This document shows, in pieces, positions 9,822-54,643 of a stretch of 64,000 nucleotides of DNA (positions are counted from its first letter, which is position 1; each line of letters starts with the position of its first letter). The notes beneath the pieces were generated by a model, which did not search any database, was not told the origin of the DNA, and worked only from the letters and a program-made list of their open reading frames with translations. This stretch comes from a virus, in IMG/VR virus record IMGVR_UViG_3300032294_002823, one strand, 5' to 3'. The position numbers were made by a program, and so were the translations under genes.

Positions 9822-12260
9822 ATGGCAACAACAAAACGATTTGTCGCAAAAAACGGATTAGACAACAACGCTCAAAGCATCACAAACGTTGGTGTGTCAG
9901 GATCAACTTTAACAATGTCAAATGCCCATAGTTTGACATTAACAACATCAGGAAATTCAACATTAACAGTTCCCTCAGGATCAGCCACGTTACTTTCTAG
10001 TGGTGGCGCATTGGGAACTCCCAGTTCAGGTACATTAACCAACTGCTCAGGACTTCCTGTATCATCAGGTATTTCTGGATTAGGCACGGGTGTTGCCACA
10101 TTCTTGGCAACACCATCAAGTGCCAACCTATTAGCGGCTGTTACAGATGAAACAGGCACAGGCGCATTGGTGTTTGCCAATACTCCAACACTTGTCACAC
10201 CTACGTTAGGTGTCGCAACAGCAACTAGTGTCAACAAAGTTGCCATCACAGCTCCCGCGACATCAGCAACATTAACCATTGCTGATGGCAAGACATTAAC
10301 AGCAAGTAACACATTGACACTTACAGGTACCGATTCAAGTTCTGTGGCATTTGGCACAGGCGGTACAGTGGCATATACATCAAATAAACTCAGTGCATTT
10401 GCCTCAACATCATCGTCTGAATTGGCAGGAGTACTTTCAGATGAGACAGGTACAGGCGCGTTGGTGTTTGCCAATACTCCAACACTTGTTACACCTGTTC
10501 TTGGTACACCTACGTCAGGTACTTTATCAAACTGTACCGGTCTTCCTGTATCAACAGGTATTTCTGGATTGGGTACAGGTGTTGCCACATTCTTGGCAAC
10601 ACCAACAAGCGCAAATCTTCTTGCAGCAGTCACAGATGAAACAGGCACAGGTACTTTAGTATTCTCTGCTAGCCCTACATTCACAGGAACCGTTAGCGCC
10701 GCTAATTTGACATTGAGTGGCGATTTAACTGTGAACGGTACAACTACTACAATTAATTCAACAACAATTTCTGTTGACGATAAGAATATTGAATTAGGTG
10801 CTGTTTCATCTCCTTCCAATACAACAGCTGATAATGGTGGTATCACATTAAGAGGTACAACAGACAAAACATTTAATTGGGTGAACTCTACAGGTGCCTG
10901 GACAAGTTCTGAGCACATTGAAATTGCCTCAGGTAAGAGTTTGTTCCTCAAAGGTTCAACATCAGGAACCATCACAGTATCTCCTGCTGCAACAGCAGGC
11001 ACTAACACTCTTACTATCCCAGCAGTAACAGGTACTGTTGTTACAACAGGTGACACAGGAAGTGTCACAAACACCATGTTGGCGGGAAGTATTGCTAATG
11101 CTAAACTTACTAATAGTACCATCTCAGGTGTGGCATTAGGTAGTAATTTAAATACATTGACAATTGGTACTGGGTTGTCAGGCACAAGTTATAACGGATC
11201 AGCAGGTGTCACAATTGCCAATACAGGTGTCACAAGTAACGTGGCAGGCACAGGTATTTCTTTGTCAGGGGGCACGGGCGCTGTCACCATCACCAACTCA
11301 GGTGTAACAAGTGCTGTTGCGGGCACAGGTATTTCTTTGTCAGGCGGCACAGGTGCTGTTACCATTACAAACTCAGGTGTAACTGCTGTTAACGGCAGTA
11401 CAGGTTCTGTCACGGTAGCGGCAACCAATCAAACGATGAACATTGGTACCACAGCCGTTGCCATTAATCGAGGTTCGGCAAACTTAGCGTTGACAGGTAT
11501 TTCAAGTGTGGCAATGCCAGGCTCAACATCAGGTACAGTGACATTACAACCTGCAGCAACAGCAGGCACCACAACAATCACATTACCCGCTACAACAGGT
11601 ACTGTGATTACATCAGGTGATTCTAGTACAGTCACGAATACAATGTTGGCAGGTAGTATTGCCAACGCAAAGTTGACTAACAGTTCCGTTACTGTCACAG
11701 CGGGTACAGGTATGTCAGGCGGCGGTTCTGTTGCACTTGGTAGTTCAATAACCTTGACAAATGCGGGCGTCACAGGTATCACTGGAGGAACAGGCGTGAC
11801 TGCATCAGCCTCAACGGGCAGCGTAACGGTGTCTATCGGGCAAGCAGTAGCAACATCTTCAAACGTACAATTTGGTGGTATAGGTGTAGGCACAGGTACT
11901 ATTGCAAGTAACGAAGTTCGAGCAACAGGCGAAATCACAGCCTTCTTCTCATCGGATGCTCGATTGAAGGAAAATGTAACTCCTATTACTAACGCTCTAG
12001 AAAAGTTGAGTCAAATTCGCGGTGTGAAATTTGATTGGACACAAAGTCATATAGATAGTAGAGGCGGAGAAGATGGTTACTTTGTGCGTAAGCATGATGT
12101 GGGTGTGATTGCCCAAGAAGTTGAAGCTGTCCTTCCAGAAGTTGTTGCAGACAGAGAAGATGGATTCAAGGCTGTAAAGTATGACAAACTTGTTCCTCTT
12201 TTGATTGAAGCCATTAAGGAATTACAAGCCGAAGTTGCTGAACTCAAAAAATCTCGTTAA
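9822..12260 (+). CDS. Long tail fibre with C-terminal peptidase S74 intramolecular chaperone
   Basis: G/T/S-rich repeats (DETGTG, GVTS.VAGTGISLSGGTGAVTITN); SSDARLKENV...GVIAQEVE.VLPEVV...YDKLVPLLIEAIKEL. Confidence 0.85.
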   Translation: MATTKRFVAKNGLDNNAQSITNVGVSGSTLTMSNAHSLTLTTSGNSTLTVPSGSATLLSSGGALGTPSSGTLTNCSGLPVSSGISGLGTGVATFLATPSSANLLAAVTDETGTGALVFANTPTLVTPTLGVATATSVNKVAITAPATSATLTIADGKTLTASNTLTLTGTDSSSVAFGTGGTVAYTSNKLSAFASTSSSELAGVLSDETGTGALVFANTPTLVTPVLGTPTSGTLSNCTGLPVSTGISGLGTGVATFLATPTSANLLAAVTDETGTGTLVFSASPTFTGTVSAANLTLSGDLTVNGTTTTINSTTISVDDKNIELGAVSSPSNTTADNGGITLRGTTDKTFNWVNSTGAWTSSEHIEIASGKSLFLKGSTSGTITVSPAATAGTNTLTIPAVTGTVVTTGDTGSVTNTMLAGSIANAKLTNSTISGVALGSNLNTLTIGTGLSGTSYNGSAGVTIANTGVTSNVAGTGISLSGGTGAVTITNSGVTSAVAGTGISLSGGTGAVTITNSGVTAVNGSTGSVTVAATNQTMNIGTTAVAINRGSANLALTGISSVAMPGSTSGTVTLQPAATAGTTTITLPATTGTVITSGDSSTVTNTMLAGSIANAKLTNSSVTVTAGTGMSGGGSVALGSSITLTNAGVTGITGGTGVTASASTGSVTVSIGQAVATSSNVQFGGIGVGTGTIASNEVRATGEITAFFSSDARLKENVTPITNALEKLSQIRGVKFDWTQSHIDSRGGEDGYFVRKHDVGVIAQEVEAVLPEVVADREDGFKAVKYDKLVPLLIEAIKELQAEVAELKKSR

Positions 12261-41609: not shown

Positions 41610-42219
41610 AATTATGGCAGGTAATAATATTACCGCTTTTACCGACCGCCCTATCTCAAAGGTGCACAAATTCTATTTGTCGGGAGATATTAAATCACCC
41701 GCTGAATATGTACAATGGTTTGAAACCATTAGAAATTCAAGTGAGAATGATGTGATTGTCGTTCACATTAATAGTTATGGTGGCGACTTATTTACGGCAA
41801 TTCAATTTATGCGTGTATTTGCTGAATCAAAGGCAAATGTTGTGGCATCAGTTGAAGGTGCATGTATGAGTGCTGCTACAATCATTTTCCTTTCTGCCAA
41901 GCATTGGGAGATTAGTAATCATTCCATGTTCATGTTTCATAACTATACCAGCGCAACCATTGGCAAGGGCGGCGAAATGTATGACAACATAATCCATGAA
42001 CGCAAGTGGAGTGAAAAACTTTGGCAGGATATCTACAGTGGGTTTTTAACAGCAAATGAAATTAAATCAATTCTTGATAGCAAAGATATTTGGATGTCAG
42101 GTGAAGAGGTTTCGAAGCGGTTACAAGAAAAATTTGCACCGAAATCTCTGAGAACGCCTAAGAAAACCCCTAAAAAAGTCACGAAAACAGTAAAAACCAA
42201 GAAGAAATCAGTTTCGTAA
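41596..42219 (+). CDS. clpP: ClpP-like serine protease (S14)
   Basis: HINSYGGD, CMSAAT (catalytic Ser), MFMFH and D.W; Lys-rich tail. Confidence 0.8.
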   Translation: MDKTEIMAGNNITAFTDRPISKVHKFYLSGDIKSPAEYVQWFETIRNSSENDVIVVHINSYGGDLFTAIQFMRVFAESKANVVASVEGACMSAATIIFLSAKHWEISNHSMFMFHNYTSATIGKGGEMYDNIIHERKWSEKLWQDIYSGFLTANEIKSILDSKDIWMSGEEVSKRLQEKFAPKSLRTPKKTPKKVTKTVKTKKKSVS

Positions 42220-42279
42220 GTGCTTATTTTTCAATAACTTACGTCAGGGCTTGACAAACGGCTTATCGGGTGCTAGATT
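42215..42279 (+). promoter_or_regulatory. Early promoter with upstream 29-bp operator (inverted copy)
   Basis: cgtaagtgcttatttttcaataacttacg, then GGGC-TTGACA-N17-TAGATT. Confidence 0.8.
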
Positions 42280-44584: not shown

Positions 44585-44591
44585 TACTGTG

Positions 44592-44663
44592 AAGCCCTAC
44601 GTAAGTTGTTGAAAAATAAGCACTTACGTAGGGCTTGACAGACGAGAGAAATGGTGTTATATT
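44592..44663 (+). promoter_or_regulatory. Early promoter with 29-bp operator inside a perfect 15-bp inverted repeat
   Basis: aagccctacgtaagt...acttacgtagggctt; TTGACA-N17-TATATT with extended TG. Confidence 0.85.
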
Positions 44664-48880: not shown

Positions 48881-49822
48881 ATGGAAGCAAATCGTGAGCA
48901 GTTTCTTTGGGTTGAAAAGTATCGTCCGCGGAAAATTTCTGATTGTATTCTTCCGCAGACATTGAAGAACACGTTCCAAGAGTTTGTGGATAAGGATAAT
49001 ATTCCTAACATGCTCTTGGCGGGTACAGCAGGGACAGGTAAGACCACGATAGCCCGGGCTCTGTGTGAAGAATTAGGTTGTGAGTATATTATTATCAACG
49101 GATCTGAGGAATCAGGTATTGATGTACTCAGAACCAAGATTAAAGATTTTGCCAGTACAGTTTCTTTGGCTGGTAAAACAAAGGTCGTGATTCTTGATGA
49201 GGCAGATTATTTAAATCCTAATTCCACACAACCCGCACTTCGTGGTTTCATTGAGGAGTTTAGTAAGAATTGTCGGTTCATTTTCACTTGTAATTACAAG
49301 AATAGAATTATTCCTCCACTACACAGTAGAACCACCGTGGTGGATTTCAAACTCTCAAAGGATGATAAGCCTGCCATGGCGGCGAAATTCTTTAAGAGAG
49401 TATCAGACATCTTGAAGGAAGAACAAGTCACGTTTGATCCGAAAGCTGTTGCTGAGGTGTTAAACAAGCACTTCCCTGATTATCGGCGTGTATTAAATGA
49501 GTTGCAACGATATGCCTCATCGGGTAATATTGATGCAGGTATTCTTACGAACATCAGTGATGCAAACATGAAGGAACTTCTCACGGCTCTCCGTGAAAAG
49601 GATTTCAAGAAGATGCGCGGTTGGGTTGTGAACAACATGGACAACGATCCGAACATGCTCTTTCGAAAGTTGTATGATACGTTACTCACTGAGGTGGTTC
49701 AAGTTCCTCAGTTGGTATTGCTATTGGCTGATTATCAATACAAGGCGGCGTTCGTTGCCGATGCTGAAATTAATTTAGTAGCATGTCTGACAGAAATCAT
49801 GGCAGCATGTGAGATGAAGTAA
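48881..49822 (+). CDS. gp44: Clamp loader ATPase gp44
   Basis: WVEKYRP, GTGKTT, ILDEAD and PLHSR. Confidence 0.96.
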   Translation: MEANREQFLWVEKYRPRKISDCILPQTLKNTFQEFVDKDNIPNMLLAGTAGTGKTTIARALCEELGCEYIIINGSEESGIDVLRTKIKDFASTVSLAGKTKVVILDEADYLNPNSTQPALRGFIEEFSKNCRFIFTCNYKNRIIPPLHSRTTVVDFKLSKDDKPAMAAKFFKRVSDILKEEQVTFDPKAVAEVLNKHFPDYRRVLNELQRYASSGNIDAGILTNISDANMKELLTALREKDFKKMRGWVVNNMDNDPNMLFRKLYDTLLTEVVQVPQLVLLLADYQYKAAFVADAEINLVACLTEIMAACEMK

Positions 49823-49834
49823 TAGGAGAATACT

Positions 49835-50326
49835 ATGAATCTTATTCCCAGTTCTTATTCGACATTTGTGACTGACCATGAAAAAGGACAAATCACACAA
49901 CTAATGGCTAAGACATATTTCATTTATCGAGGTTGGGAGACATCAACTCCTGAGAATCCATGCTCTCCATATGATTTATTGATTCGTCATCCCCGAACAG
50001 GAAAGTCTTTACTGGTACAAGTAAAGTCATTAACTAGTAAAAATAGAAGTGTTGAAACATATGCTAAAGGAAATGGTAGGGACAAGGGCTCAAAAAGAAA
50101 AAAGACAGATTATGCCAAATGTGGTATTGATTTTCTTCTTGGGGTTGATGTTGACACTTCAAATGTCTATCTGTATCCGTTAGATTTCTATCGGGGAAAG
50201 AGTACTATCAATGTAGATAAAAATCCTTCGTTTGATGTTGAATTCATCACAGAACGAGGGTATAGAAACTTTAAGATGCACGAAGAAATTTCCACATTAG
50301 ACCTACTGGCACATGATAAATCTTGA
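49835..50326 (+). CDS. Free-standing PD-(D/E)XK endonuclease (homing-endonuclease-like)
   Basis: PYDLLI...LVQVKS...IDFLLGV; lies between gp44 and gp62. Confidence 0.65.
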   Translation: MNLIPSSYSTFVTDHEKGQITQLMAKTYFIYRGWETSTPENPCSPYDLLIRHPRTGKSLLVQVKSLTSKNRSVETYAKGNGRDKGSKRKKTDYAKCGIDFLLGVDVDTSNVYLYPLDFYRGKSTINVDKNPSFDVEFITERGYRNFKMHEEISTLDLLAHDKS

Positions 50327-50762
50327 TGGCGAAGAAATCGTAGAAGAAAAAATTGAGGAATATAAAACTCCGAAAATTAGTCCTTTCGATTTCGTGAATG
50401 CCATTCATTACTCTAAGGATGCACTCATTGTGGATGAGTGGAGTGAGAAACAGTATAATCCCTATCTTGTAAACAAGAGTTTAAGTTTCGGGGCAGACAC
50501 AGTAATTGCTGCCAATGAAATGAATAGTCGTCCCCACCTGGAGAAACGCCTCCAGTTTGATTTTCTTATAAATATAGTGAGACCTCGAAAGAGATTCAAC
50601 AAGTGGTTGAAGGCTGAAAAAGTCGAAGATATTGATGTGGTTAAACAGTATTATAAATACAATACTGAGAAAGCATTTCAGGCTCTTGCTCTTTTGACGC
50701 CAGAACAAATTCTCACAATTAAAGAAAAATTGAACACAGGTGGATTGACAAATGGCGCATGA
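50313..50762 (+). CDS. gp62: Clamp loader subunit gp62
   Basis: SPFDFVN, ANEMN, LQFDFL and RPRKRF.KW. Confidence 0.93.
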   Translation: MINLDGEEIVEEKIEEYKTPKISPFDFVNAIHYSKDALIVDEWSEKQYNPYLVNKSLSFGADTVIAANEMNSRPHLEKRLQFDFLINIVRPRKRFNKWLKAEKVEDIDVVKQYYKYNTEKAFQALALLTPEQILTIKEKLNTGGLTNGA

Positions 50763-51171
50763 TTTAATAAATATACCCGCAATTCCTGGGTATGAACCAT
50801 TAGAAGTTAAATTGGTGAATCCGGATGACTTCTTGAAGGTTCGGGAAACATTAACACGTATTGGTGTTGCCTCACGAAAGGATCAAACACTATACCAAAG
50901 CTGTCACATCTTACATAAGCAAGGCAGATATTTCATTGTTCACTTTAAGGAACTTTTTGCCCTTGACGGTAAGCATGCTGATTTATCAGATAACGATTTA
51001 CACAGACGTAATACAGTTGCTCATCTTCTTGAAGATTGGGGATTGGTTGACATTGTGAACCCAGACCTATGTGAAGATACCGCACCGTTATCACAAATCA
51101 AAGTACTTGCATTTGGTGAAAAGAACAATTGGAATTTAGTAGCAAAATATAATATTGGAAAAAAGAAATAA
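50752..51171 (+). CDS. regA: Translational repressor RegA
   Basis: DDFLKVRETLTRIGVASR and LYQSCHILHKQGRYFIVHFKELF. Confidence 0.97.
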   Translation: MAHDLINIPAIPGYEPLEVKLVNPDDFLKVRETLTRIGVASRKDQTLYQSCHILHKQGRYFIVHFKELFALDGKHADLSDNDLHRRNTVAHLLEDWGLVDIVNPDLCEDTAPLSQIKVLAFGEKNNWNLVAKYNIGKKK

Positions 51172-51172
51172 G

Positions 51173-51720
51173 ACTTGACTGTAGGGGTGTTAGGAGTTAA
51201 CTTAACCTTAGATACGCCGAAAGGGTATCACTAACACATTCGCTCAAAGGAGGAATTATGACACGTACCTTTACTTTTAACTCTGCTTCTCTTAATACAC
51301 CATGGGCTATTGGCTTTGATAGTCTCTGGGACCGTTTTCATACCATTGAATCGGTTAATAGTGCAAGCAATTATCCCCCATACAACATCGTTAAGCATGA
51401 TGCTGAGCATTGGAGCATCGAACTTGCCGTGGCAGGTTTCAAGCGGAATGAACTTGATGTTGAATTGGCTGAGGGAGTTCTTACCATTTCAGCAAAGACA
51501 GAAACTTCAGAAACCGAAGTGGAATATGTCCATCGCGGTTTGGCAAAGCGTGCGTTCACTCGCAAGTGGACACTCGCTGATGATGTAGTTGTTCGTGATG
51601 CGTCACTTGTTGATGGTGTTCTCACCATTGATTTGGAACGCATCGTCCCCGAGGATAAGAAGCCTCGGAAGATTGACATTTTGTAATTAAATAATCCTCC
51701 TAACACCCTTACAGTTGAGT
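51173..51720 (+). repeat. 24-nt inverted repeat bracketing hsp20 (51173-51196 and 51697-51720)
   Basis: acttgactgtaggggtgttaggag against ctcctaacacccttacagttgagt gives 21 Watson-Crick and 3 G-U pairs. Confidence 0.85.
51258..51686 (+). CDS. hsp20: Small heat-shock protein Hsp20
   Basis: NYPPYNI, ELAVAGF, YVHRGLAKRAF and DGVLTIDLER. Confidence 0.95.
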   Translation: MTRTFTFNSASLNTPWAIGFDSLWDRFHTIESVNSASNYPPYNIVKHDAEHWSIELAVAGFKRNELDVELAEGVLTISAKTETSETEVEYVHRGLAKRAFTRKWTLADDVVVRDASLVDGVLTIDLERIVPEDKKPRKIDIL

Positions 51721-51725
51721 TTATA

Positions 51726-52022
51726 ATGATTAAATGCATCAAGTTAGTTACAGGCGAAGATTTGATTGGTGACGTTGAAGTACAAGGTGATTCACTCACC
51801 ATCGAAACGCCGTGTGCGGTTGTGCTCATCCCAACCCAAGAACATCAATACTCTGTTGGTCTTGCACCATTTCTTCCGTTTGCTGCCTCCAAGAAGTTTT
51901 CATATTCCCGTGAACATGTTGTGCTGGTATATGAAGCAGCCGACCAATTGAAGAATGAATACAATAGGATTACAGGCAAGGGTATTGTTCTTCCTGAACG
52001 CCCAAAGTTAGAACTAGTCTAA
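51726..52022 (+). CDS. Conserved hypothetical protein (Sm-like) upstream of gp43
   Basis: IKLVTGEDLIG...GIVLP. Confidence 0.7.
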   Translation: MIKCIKLVTGEDLIGDVEVQGDSLTIETPCAVVLIPTQEHQYSVGLAPFLPFAASKKFSYSREHVVLVYEAADQLKNEYNRITGKGIVLPERPKLELV

Positions 52023-52028
52023 TACATT

Positions 52029-52054
52029 GAAACCTCTCGGAGACGGGAGGTTTC
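52029..52054 (+). terminator. Hairpin, probable terminator
   Basis: gaaacctctcg-gaga-cgggaggtttc; weak U tail. Confidence 0.55.
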
Positions 52055-52062
52055 CTGCCTAC

Positions 52063-52090
52063 TTGACAAAGTGTGGCATCATGTTATATT
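52063..52090 (+). promoter_or_regulatory. sigma70-type promoter for gp43
   Basis: TTGACA-N16-TATATT with extended TG. Confidence 0.65.
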
Positions 52091-52132
52091 TCATACATAT
52101 CTTAAAAACATTCAAGACCCGGGAGAGGTTGA

Positions 52133-54643
52133 ATGAAGAATTTCTACACGAACGTATTACAATATGGTAATAGAATTCTTGTCCGTGAAATTAAAAACGG
52201 CAAGCGTGACAACCACAAGGTGGAATTCCGCCCCACGATGTTCATTAAGGCGCAGACTGAAACAAAACATAAAAGTTTGTTTGGTGATAATCTAGAGCCT
52301 ATTCAATTTGGTGACATCAACGAAGCAAAAGAATTCATGAAGAAATATAAGGAAGTAGAAAACTTCCCCATCTTCGGTAACACTTCTTTTGCCTATCAGT
52401 ACATCACAGAGAAGTATCCTACTGAGGTTGATTATGATATTAGTCAGCTCACCATCTTCTCACTCGACATTGAGACAGCCTCAGAGAATGGCTTTCCGAG
52501 TATTGACAATCCCATTGAGGAAGTCTTGCTCATCACAGTACAAGATAACAACACAAAGAAGATTACAACCTTTGGCGCAAAAAAGTTTGACATTGAAAAC
52601 ATCAAGCATATTTCCAATAAGAACAATTTCGAATATGTGAAGTGTCGTGACGAAGCAGATTTGCTCAGCACATTTCTTCGTTTCTGGCAAGCCACAACTC
52701 CTGATGTTGTGACAGGATGGAACACACAGCTATTCGATATGCCTTATCTTCTGGTTCGTATCAAGAGAGTTTTGGGTGAAGATAAAGTTAAGGATTTGTC
52801 GCCATGGCGTATTGTTAATGAACGATACATCACGATGAATGGTCGTGAATTTCTCACTGCTGATATTTTTGGTGTGAGTAGCTTAGATTATTTGGACTTG
52901 TACAAGAAGTTTACATACTCGGCACAAGAAAGTTATAAGCTCGATTATATCGCACAGCAGGAATTGGGAAGAAAGAAACTAGAAACGGAATATGAAACAT
53001 TCAAGGATCATTATACAAATGATTGGCAATCGTTTGTGGAATATAACGTTGTTGACGTAGAACTGGTTGACGCCTTAGAAGATAAGATGAAGTTGATTGA
53101 ATTGGTTATCACGATGGCATATGATGCCAAGTGTAACTTCAATGACATCTTCTCGGCGGTGCGAACCTGGGATTGTATTCTTCACAATCATTTGTGGGCA
53201 AAGAATATTATTGTTCATCAAAAGGAACATCATGAAGGTAGAACAATTGCCGGTGCCTATGTGAAAGAACCCGTGCCGGGTAAGTATGATTGGGTCGTGA
53301 GCTTCGACGCGGCATCACTATATCCTAGCATCATCATGCAGTATAACATGAGTCCTGAAACAATGGTGGCGGGTGCATCACTAGACATCACTCCTGAAAA
53401 ACTTTTGGCAGGACATACGGAACACGTTGGTCAACTCCATGACAAGAATGTGGCAATGGCAGCAAATGGCTATTGTTATACACAAACACACCAAGGATTG
53501 TTCCCAGAAATTGTTGAAAAGATTTTCAGTGAACGTGTGTTCTACAAGAAGAAGATGATTGAGGCACAGAAGGAATATGAAAAGACAAAGGATGTTGAAC
53601 AGGTAAAGTTGATTTCCAAATATAACAACATTCAAATGGCTCGTAAGATTCAGTTGAATAGTTTATATGGTGCCTGGGCAAATCAATACTTTCGTTTCTA
53701 TGATGATAGGATTGCCGAAGGTATCACGTTGACAGGACAATACATTATTCAACATATTGGTCGAGCATTGAATGATTATCTGAACAAGACATGTGGAACC
53801 ACTGATGTGGAGTATACTTTCTATTCCGATACTGATAGTTGTTACATCACATTGGATAAGTTGGTTGAACAACATTTCTCACAGTTGGATAAGAACAAGA
53901 TTGTGGATGTGATTGACAAGTTTTGTAAGGATAAAATTAGTAAGGTGTTATCTCGCGCCTGTGAAGAAATCATGGATGTGACACATGGATACGTGTCGAA
54001 GATGGAGTTCAAACGTGAGGTGATTGCTGATAAGGCAATCTGGGTGGCGAAGAAGCGATATGCCTTGAACGTCTATGATAGTGAAGGTGTTCGATACAAG
54101 GAACCCAAGCTGAAGGTACAGGGGCTTGAAATTGTTCGTAGTTCAACGCCTGGGAGTGTCCGTGAATATCTTCGAAACACAGTGAAGATGGCACTGACAA
54201 AAACACAAGATGAGATTCAAGAGTATATTGCTGACCTTGAACAGAAATTCATGCAGATGACACCTGAGGAGATTGCATTTCCGCGAAGTGCCAACAATCT
54301 CTCCAAGTATCATTCACAGGCAACCATATATCAGAAGGCGACACCTATGCATGTTCGAGGTGCACTGTTATACAATCATCACATTAAGTTGAAGAAGTTG
54401 GAAAGAAAGTATGAGCTAATTAAAGAAGGTGATAAAATCAAGTATTTGTATTTGAAGGAACCCAATCCCATCAAGGAAAACAGCATTGCATTTGTGACAT
54501 CGTTACCAAAAGAACTTGACATACATAAGTATGTTGATTATAATACAATGTTCGAAAAGAGTTTTCTAGAACCTATGCGAACCATTCTTGATTGTATGGG
54601 TTGGTCAACACGAAAAATTGCCACACTGGATGATTTATTCTAA
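52133..54643 (+). CDS. gp43: Family B DNA polymerase gp43
   Basis: DIET exonuclease motif, SFDAASLYPS, KIQLNSLYG, YSDTDS and KKRY. Confidence 0.98.
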   Translation: MKNFYTNVLQYGNRILVREIKNGKRDNHKVEFRPTMFIKAQTETKHKSLFGDNLEPIQFGDINEAKEFMKKYKEVENFPIFGNTSFAYQYITEKYPTEVDYDISQLTIFSLDIETASENGFPSIDNPIEEVLLITVQDNNTKKITTFGAKKFDIENIKHISNKNNFEYVKCRDEADLLSTFLRFWQATTPDVVTGWNTQLFDMPYLLVRIKRVLGEDKVKDLSPWRIVNERYITMNGREFLTADIFGVSSLDYLDLYKKFTYSAQESYKLDYIAQQELGRKKLETEYETFKDHYTNDWQSFVEYNVVDVELVDALEDKMKLIELVITMAYDAKCNFNDIFSAVRTWDCILHNHLWAKNIIVHQKEHHEGRTIAGAYVKEPVPGKYDWVVSFDAASLYPSIIMQYNMSPETMVAGASLDITPEKLLAGHTEHVGQLHDKNVAMAANGYCYTQTHQGLFPEIVEKIFSERVFYKKKMIEAQKEYEKTKDVEQVKLISKYNNIQMARKIQLNSLYGAWANQYFRFYDDRIAEGITLTGQYIIQHIGRALNDYLNKTCGTTDVEYTFYSDTDSCYITLDKLVEQHFSQLDKNKIVDVIDKFCKDKISKVLSRACEEIMDVTHGYVSKMEFKREVIADKAIWVAKKRYALNVYDSEGVRYKEPKLKVQGLEIVRSSTPGSVREYLRNTVKMALTKTQDEIQEYIADLEQKFMQMTPEEIAFPRSANNLSKYHSQATIYQKATPMHVRGALLYNHHIKLKKLERKYELIKEGDKIKYLYLKEPNPIKENSIAFVTSLPKELDIHKYVDYNTMFEKSFLEPMRTILDCMGWSTRKIATLDDLF

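Follow-up and report, generated by a model that had tools for sequence, protein, structure and literature searches.

Why should a phage enclose a complete small heat-shock gene between the two strands of a long RNA helix? This question is raised by a 64-kb stretch of IMG/VR virus record IMGVR_UViG_3300032294_002823 (hereafter the window), which according to its list of open reading frames (ORFs) and domain matches is part of the replication module of a T4-like myovirus. Here, the small heat-shock gene hsp20 sits entirely within a 500-nt loop, closed by a helix between two complementary arms, L (left, 5') and R (right, 3'). A previous reading made from the letters alone (the sequence-only reading) had pointed out this pairing and suggested several functions for it, which we have now followed up by computational analysis. 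The analysis also brought out four points that this reading does not mention: an anti-Shine-Dalgarno sequence in the right arm fitting the hsp20 leader, the Sm-like nature of the downstream product, the ROSE-like character of the second leader hairpin, and a degree of conservation in the arms that goes far beyond the needs of pairing. We propose that L:R acts as a switch that depends on transcript origin, because the partners available to R differ between RNA read through from regA and RNA initiated at a promoter of hsp20, with cleavage by RNase III possibly accompanying or executing the switch. On balance, and if only just, we hold this to be the probable explanation. The elements concerned are the following:

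50752-51171, + strand: regA, translational repressor (PF01818, E 2.5e-46; ORF list)
51171-51196, + strand: left (5') arm L, core 51173-51196, holding the Shine-Dalgarno (SD)-like UAGGAG
51258-51686, + strand: hsp20, small heat-shock protein (PF00011, E 6.7e-19; phrog_432)
51697-51722, + strand: right (3') arm R, core 51697-51720, covering the SD-like GAG at 51717-51719
51726-52022, + strand: ORF98, predicted Sm/LSm-like protein of 98 aa

A 26-bp helix closes a loop around hsp20

The repeat search returned the arms 51173-51196 and 51697-51720 as 21/24 complementary (88%) and 500 nt apart. The three positions that mismatch at the DNA level are U-G, G-U and G-U on the + strand, and the gap-free 24-bp pairing described by the sequence-only reading was thus borne out by search and sequence alike. 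When G-U pairs were allowed, an ungapped search extended the helix to 26 bp (51171-51196 with 51697-51722) with a duplex energy of -41.8 kcal/mol. It is present in both the minimum-free-energy and the centroid fold of 51165-51730 (z = -6.3), and in read-through RNA an equilibrium model assigns it a pair probability of ~0.98 at 25, 37 and 45 °C. In a Smith-Waterman pairing search the window scored 58, with a shuffle maximum of 27. Such ungapped and shuffled searches were employed since RNA.duplexfold, which allows huge interior loops, was non-discriminating when applied to the flanks.

With up to 3 mismatches, the arm is found at only 2 sites in the window (100 shuffles expect 0.00). For genome-wide checks we used a 124-kb IMG/VR record, which is 66% complete and shares 68% of the window's sampled 31-mers; a search of it for the 17-nt core of the arm, again allowing up to 3 mismatches, gave these two places and no other. 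As further copies are lacking in the window and in the 124-kb record, the arm is not a dispersed repeat. On its 5' side, the helix adjoins neighbouring coding sequence closely: in the window, its first pair is directly next to, or shared with, the regA stop codon TAA (51169-51171), and in the relatives introduced below the left arm starts 0-9 nt from this stop. On the 3' side, R stops just short of the next start codon, as had been claimed, namely 4-6 nt before the AUG of ORF98.

The motif CUAACAC occurs twice in this region, at 51231-51237 in the hsp20 leader and at 51700-51706 in the right arm. GUGUUAG of the left arm thus has a second, local partner in the leader (-10.6 kcal/mol), and this pairing is a possible co-transcriptional intermediate.

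Selection acts on pairing of the sense strand

Relatives were collected by Hsp20-based and pattern-based scans of IMG/VR and JGI metagenomes, which yielded ~45 contigs, mostly from lakes and estuaries, belonging to one clade. The clade is defined by the gene order regA-hsp20-ORF98-gp43 and by identities of 72-100% for Hsp20, down to 60% for the N-terminus of gp43 and down to 48% for ORF98. The helix is kept in all 37 distinct loci with both flanks; 31 have an uninterrupted 24-26 bp, while the remaining loci have 17+6 bp with one mismatch, or one bulge. An uncompensated 1-nt deletion leaves a bulged U in loci L008 and L009. From the alignment alone, RNAalifold returned the identical 26 pairs, together with both hairpins of the hsp20 leader, as consensus structure. 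Over the 37 loci, 98.6% of the alignment cells pair, compared to 41-49% when the 3' partner is shifted by 1-3 columns, and for the antisense strand the figure taken from this table would be only ~87%.

The substitutions point in the same direction. Among the 26 pairs, 18 are invariant, 6 vary on one side and always via G-U, and 2 have changed on both sides. A compensatory pair is C-G in basal lineages and U-A elsewhere, and in locus L015 a matched deletion has shortened the G-run of the left arm by one G and the C-run of the right arm by one C. Parsimony on the hsp20 tree counts ~10 one-sided substitutions that keep pairing against 2-3 that break it, two of the latter being compensated later. 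The two DNA copies differ somewhere in the clade at 8 positions; 7 of these are G-U on the sense strand, and transversions are absent (estimated p ~0.002 if one third of random differences were of the G-U type). Since the G-U pattern, the compensation and the shift test agree, selection appears to act on pairing of the sense-strand RNA, and a DNA-only repeat is unlikely. We conclude from the alignments that the helix is in all likelihood an RNA-level feature selected on the sense strand, with covariation that is moderate rather than strong. The sequence-only reading had claimed such a feature on account of the G-U mismatches and had named covariation across regA-hsp20 loci as the way to check it; compensatory changes are indeed present, with 2 of the 26 pairs changed on both sides and one matched indel.

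The arms might alternatively be inverted sites that work in the DNA, either as an operator pair looping out hsp20 or as a recombination site, the RNA pairing then being incidental. Such sites would agree with the primary sequence of both arms being conserved to an extreme degree, more than second codon positions are. The left arm lies over the spacer of a putative promoter, a typical operator position, and co-evolution with a binding protein could explain why both copies changed in parallel (C/T with G/A, and the matched deletion). However, sites of this kind do not account for the 7 of 8 differing positions that are sense-strand G-U without any transversion, and the spacing of the arms shifts by codon indels, not by helical turns. 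Moreover, hsp20 has the orientation of regA and gp43 in all ~40 loci with identifiable flanks and is never inverted, no recombinase gene is adjacent, and the motif is not repeated elsewhere in the genome. We regard DNA sites as an improbable explanation.

How widespread is the helix? The ungapped search revealed no comparable helix in loci with ~45% identical Hsp20. Neither did Smith-Waterman pairing with shuffles in 30 more distant regA-hsp20 loci, many of which have ORF98 and gp43 in the same order: none of them scores more than ~10 points away from its own shuffle maximum, and the scores amount to about half that of the window. A bracketing helix as a general trait of phage hsp20 was hence rejected, as it is absent at ~45% Hsp20 identity and in syntenic sister clades, and we regard it as an innovation of one clade because distant syntenic phages lack it. 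The same comparison bears on the idea that the arms are terminal inverted repeats left by a mobile hsp20 cassette and have no present function. Inverted repeats of 24-26 bp exactly at both intergenic borders of one gene would look like this, but much more distant phages share the gene order without the repeats, and since the order regA-hsp20-ORF98-gp43 predates the arms, these are not scars of a recent insertion. With only two copies of the arm in the genome, no target-site duplication seen in the sequence and strong purifying selection on the arms, we find a cassette remnant very hard to credit. Inversion or transposition of DNA, which the sequence-only reading had listed as evidence that would speak against an RNA helix, was looked for by the same signs of a mobile element or invertible segment and did not emerge: there is one orientation only, there are two copies, and neither a target-site duplication nor an adjacent recombinase was found.

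Mean pairwise differences place the arms among the most constrained sites of the locus:

left arm: 0.035
right arm: 0.027
leader (51211-51257): 0.026
hsp20 second codon positions: 0.068
hsp20 third codon positions: 0.36
third positions of the first ORF98 codons: 0.51

The arms are thus ~12x more conserved than synonymous sites. Because pairing alone would permit far more covariation at this divergence, each arm must carry further constraints, and the comparison points to a sequence-specific constraint on the arms beyond pairing.

Two relatives with deletions were noted along the way. In locus L039 (L039:3290-3420; IMGVR_UViG_3300008259_001317), a 166-nt deletion joins hsp20 (~codon 115) in frame to ORF98 (~codon 17) and takes out the right arm, leaving the left arm intact; the locus represents either a deletion variant that occurs in nature or an artefact of assembly. 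In locus L042 (L042:2990-3400; IMGVR_UViG_3300008113_004040), an early 73-nt deletion shifts the frame of hsp20, which is likely a pseudogene, while the putative promoter, the leader and the two arms are unaffected.

The left arm overlaps a putative hsp20 promoter

The left arm coincides with the -35 box and spacer of a candidate promoter:

51175-51203, + strand: putative sigma-70-type hsp20 promoter with -35 TTGACT (51175-51180), 17-nt spacer and -10 TAACTT (51198-51203)

From this arrangement, transcripts of hsp20 would start at ~51210-51212, at the base of the first leader hairpin. In the clade, the -35 box reads TTGAC(T/C->T)T and the spacer measures 17 nt (16 nt in L015). The -10 hexamer falls inside the sole variable stretch of the regA-hsp20 intergenic region, yet it always reads TAnnnT in the 37 loci (TAACTT, TATCTT, TATATT, TACATT, TAAATT, TATCAT, TAATAT or TAACAT), and an invariant TAnnnT with varying inner bases fits the pattern expected of a -10 box. 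Sister clades possess a near-consensus TTGACT-N17-TATAAAT at the equivalent spot, straight after the regA stop. Because the left arm overlaps this putative promoter, only read-through RNA would carry both arms. The sequence-only reading had reasoned likewise that read-through from regA is needed to form the helix, and the conserved -35 box, the 17-nt spacer, the TAnnnT hexamer and the promoter of the sister clades speak in favour of that claim. A look-up for transcript-derived short contigs returned only one long genomic contig.

Two further promoter-like sequences were considered and rejected. CTAACA-N16-TATAAT at 51700-51727, within the right arm, is no plausible cause of conservation, as it would start transcription inside ORF98 and its -10 box overlaps the ATG. 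An antisense promoter on the minus-strand copy of the arm has its -35 box altered to CTCAAC and a -10 position that is not conserved.

The right arm carries an anti-SD sequence for hsp20

Between promoter and start codon, the hsp20 leader contains two hairpins, and its SD sequence is complementary to the beginning of the right arm:

51211-51229, + strand: leader hairpin 1, GAUAC.GCC-GAAA-GG.GUAUC, where promoter-initiated RNA is predicted to begin (fold and RNAalifold)
51238-51256, + strand: leader hairpin 2, ROSE-like, UCGCU with bulged G51242 paired to the SD
51248-51259, + strand: M, hsp20 SD AGGAGGA (51248-51254) and start region, complementary to 51691-51701
51691-51701, + strand: anti-SD-like AUAAUCCUCCU, overlapping the start of the right arm

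The GAAA-loop hairpin that had been pointed out in the leader proved to be real: the stem of hairpin 1 is invariant and the loop bases alone vary (GAAA/GACA/GAAC). Hairpin 2 places UCGCU (51240-51244), with its bulged G51242, opposite AGGA. This agrees with the signature of ROSE elements, in which the final hairpin of the 5' untranslated region pairs the SD with U(U/C)GCU containing a bulged G (PMC4152365). In relatives, the stem of hairpin 2 is kept and its loop is variable, and two C-to-U changes in L016 turn into G-U pairs. Sister clades carry CUCGCUUAAUAGGAG after a GC hairpin with UUCG loop and U-run (L154, L155, L161, L162, L165, L212 and L228). Searched with Rfam, the region 50700-52200 gave no match to ROSE at E up to 10, and a permissive scan returned only chance-level CRISPR-DR24 and L2 leader matches and no other family.

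On the strength of its predicted fold, the small hairpin 2 is a plausible thermosensor candidate at the locus, and this bears on another suggestion of the sequence-only reading, namely that the long helix could be a temperature-sensitive switch for the downstream gene. Such a thermosensor would have to melt upon heat shock and thereby activate ORF98. The helix does surround a heat-shock gene, but for a duplex of -41.8 kcal/mol the model predicts no change of pairing between 25 and 45 °C (p 0.97 at the upper temperature), and hairpin 2 is the better candidate. Of all explanations discussed here, a thermosensing long helix appears the least credible.

The anti-SD-like sequence is of a different nature. 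The hsp20 SD AGGAGGA is complemented without a mismatch by UCCUCCU (51695-51701), and UUAU over the start codon by AUAA (51691-51694); C51696 is invariant though it lies outside the L:R helix. The M:R duplex has an energy of -13.2 kcal/mol, and its pair probabilities in promoter-initiated RNA are predicted to be 0.54-0.93. For RNA from 51211 in relatives, the model gives 0.73-1.0 in 16 of 17 cases and 0.15 in L019. In read-through RNA (from 51160), L:R reaches ~1.0 in the window and 16 relatives, and hairpin 2 forms in 15 of 16 relatives (0.85-0.98) and more weakly in the window (0.67). The choice of partner would also affect the ORF98 SD, whose predicted probability of being unpaired is 0.01 in read-through RNA and 0.08-0.25 in promoter-initiated RNA; with the relatives included, it is 0.00-0.11 in the former, and in RNA from 51211 this SD is more open in most relatives (0.02-0.40). 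M:R as a heat-labile thermometer was discarded, since it stays paired to 55 °C in the model.

ORF98 encodes a probable Sm-like protein

ORF98 has no Pfam match above threshold, but sub-threshold matches to DUF6561 and Sm_like are consistent. A profile built from 28 homologues in the fetched loci matches PDB 3BY7 (E 2.6e-21). The AlphaFold (AF2) model (pLDDT 89.7) superimposes on 3BY7 in a Foldseek search with a TM score of 0.78-0.90 and an rmsd of 1.3-2.4 Å, the next matches being Lsm/Sm proteins. Profile and model thus identify the product as a probable Sm/LSm-like protein of the 3BY7 family, for which no RNA-binding function has been demonstrated to our knowledge. If the assignment is right, the helix would gate the ribosome site of a putative RNA-binding protein, and it adjoins the 3' side of regA, the gene of another RNA-binding regulator. 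Homologues of ORF98 lie downstream of hsp20 in many T4-like phage contigs. A 97-aa ORF after regA in cyanophage ACG-2014b was considered as a homologue and turned out to be unrelated.

A proposed switch set by the origin of the transcript

What, then, could the helix be good for? We suggest that the right arm is common to three partners, namely L, the hsp20 SD region (M) and the ribosome site of ORF98, and that the origin of the RNA decides between them. The long-range duplex would form only in sense RNA read through from the gp44-gp62-regA operon, whereas hsp20 RNA initiated at its own promoter would be devoid of L. In read-through RNA, L would capture R over 26 bp (-42 kcal/mol) and bury the ribosome site of the Sm-like gene, and the hsp20 SD would be restrained only by the weak ROSE-like hairpin. 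In promoter-initiated RNA, the anti-SD UCCUCCU of the free R could pair with the hsp20 SD, and the 3' half of R would stop blocking the Sm-like gene. Since the regA stop touches the first pair of the helix, helix formation may also be tied to translation of regA: a ribosome terminating on regA should open part of L. In addition, the uninterrupted two turns of double-stranded RNA (dsRNA) would be a plausible substrate for RNase III, whose cleavage may accompany or execute the switch.

Several points weigh against this proposal. Covariation is thin, with 18 of the 26 pairs never varying and only 2 double changes, a C.A intermediate of the compensatory pair persists in L016 and L033, and the excess of pairing-keeping transitions taken alone is marginal (estimated p 0.05-0.1), as ~56% of the possible transitions keep pairing. 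Under a model of pairing only, it is unexpected that arms and leader (0.03 per site) exceed second codon positions (0.07) in conservation. The complementarity of M and R follows partly and automatically from the SD-like sequence in L, what is independent being 2 core bases and the 4-bp extension. The -10 box of the window is weak: it matches the consensus at only 3 of 6 positions, and for this reason the promoter was not called by a consensus scan. Finally, the folds are equilibrium predictions that include neither ribosomes nor kinetics.

A related explanation is that L:R is primarily a processing stem. A host RNase III would cut both arms of the read-through RNA, release hsp20 RNA with paired ends, end the regA message and free or inactivate the Sm-like cistron. 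The helix offers the at least ~20 bp of uninterrupted dsRNA of an RNase III stem, and its 24-26 bp (approximately two turns) are kept at full length in relatives. As the 26-bp duplex is longer than masking of a ribosome site requires, this reading stays attractive. In Bacillus subtilis, RNase III was found to cleave long-range intramolecular mRNA duplexes between sequences hundreds of nt apart (PMC11780869), and the stems flanking rRNAs are a textbook case (PMC6582327). However, enzymes that need dsRNA irrespective of sequence predict free covariation, and the arms are nearly invariant; an RNase III gene was not found in the 66%-complete related 124-kb record. As the primary function, processing has in our view a minor chance of being right, although it is compatible with the switch proposed here.

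A more elaborate version of the switch can also be conceived, in which a decoy SD (L), the hsp20 SD (M) and the ORF98 ribosome site compete for one shared anti-SD, such that transcript origin would control a chaperone and an RNA chaperone-like protein reciprocally. The duplex might in turn be subject to feedback from the Sm-like product or from RegA, and RNase III could render the choice irreversible. We offer this full scheme as a speculation that is rather unlikely to hold in all its parts.

Comparison with known systems

We know of no gene-enclosing, origin-sensing mRNA switch described in a DNA phage. Retroregulation of int by sib in phage lambda shares the principle that expression depends on where a transcript starts or ends. 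There, an RNase III-sensitive local hairpin is complete in only one of two transcript classes, and these differ at the 3' end owing to terminator read-through; in the present case the 5' end would differ, and the helix is long-range.

The closest logic is found in the genes e, soc, 49 and I-TevI of phage T4, where long upstream transcripts mask the ribosome site and RNAs from a promoter in the 5' strand of the stem are translated (PMC3014915). Common to both would be a promoter, putative in the present case, inside the DNA that codes for the 5' strand of the inhibitory helix, and R is predicted to cover the ORF98 SD in the manner of the SD sequestration in T4. In contrast to the local hairpins of T4, the helix described here closes a 500-nt loop with a complete gene and its own leader, and the hsp20 SD offers its 3' arm a further possible partner. 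The putative promoter is sigma-70-like and not of the late TATAAATA type, which is not present in the -10 region of the clade in the 37-locus alignment.

The stems of 16S and 23S rRNA and the B. subtilis targets of RNase III (PMC11780869) resemble L:R in that a near-perfect duplex of distant sequences brackets a functional RNA unit. What lies between the strands here, however, is a phage cistron that codes for a protein, the arms show an invariant sequence instead of free covariation, and cleavage is putative.

Among heat-shock leaders, the 'avalong' leader of a small heat-shock gene in Anabaena combines a ROSE-like thermometer with a competing alternative anti-SD (PMC4152365). The hsp20 leader is similar in its stable first hairpin, its short last hairpin that pairs with the SD and a second anti-SD that could compete; here, the competing sequence is located 440 nt downstream, past the stop codon, and constitutes one half of the 26-bp helix. 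Distal anti-SD-like sequences, located hundreds of nt downstream, were shown to pair with ribosome binding sites and to repress in vivo (Gill et al. 2025, PMC12697547). Similarly, a pyrimidine-rich CCUCC-type sequence far downstream complements the gene's own ribosome binding site in the window. In genes, such sequences are selected against (PMC12697547), whereas the one in R is strictly conserved and has a stronger partner upstream as a decoy.

Conserved helices that enclose a gene have seldom been documented with comparative support in bacterial and phage mRNAs. The locus could thus serve as a natural test case for three questions: how the origin of a transcript can decide the fate of an mRNA, whether stems that bracket a gene are targets of RNase III beyond rRNA operons, and whether distal anti-SD pairing serves a regulatory purpose or is merely avoided. 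It would also join a ROSE-like thermometer and a phage Sm-like protein in one unit beside regA and provide a handle on both.

Genomic setting and further elements

The remaining genes around the locus are those of the T4-like replication module:

48881-49822: gp44 clamp loader
49835-50326: ORF of the PD-(D/E)XK endonuclease family between gp44 and gp62, 163 aa (PF11645, phrog_5018)
50313-50762: gp62
52029-52090, + strand: stable hairpin (52029-52054) without U-run, followed by TTGACA-N16-TATATT ahead of gp43
52133-54643: gp43 DNA polymerase

The interval between gp44 and gp62 is a typical site of free-standing homing-type nucleases in T4-like phages. In a DNA search of public phage genomes, only regA was matched, with ~70% nucleotide identity and mostly in cyanomyoviruses; neither hsp20 nor the arms of the helix had a match there. 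The hairpin in 52029-52090 (-17.9 kcal/mol, z -4.6), with a strong TTGACA promoter directly after it, is the likely downstream limit of the regulatory unit.

This hairpin and its TTGACA-N16-TATATT sequence form another stem-loop-plus-early-promoter unit. Elsewhere in the window, a quasi-palindrome of 30 nt occurs once in each orientation (97% complementary), at 42215-42244 and 44599-44628 (also 44587-44641). Each copy adjoins a GGGCTTGACA promoter-like site, resembling a PeSL- or operator-like module of hairpin plus promoter. An identical 26-nt palindromic hairpin, GGTGTTGCCACATTCTTGGCAACACC, is found at 10089-10114 and 10578-10603, 489 nt apart.

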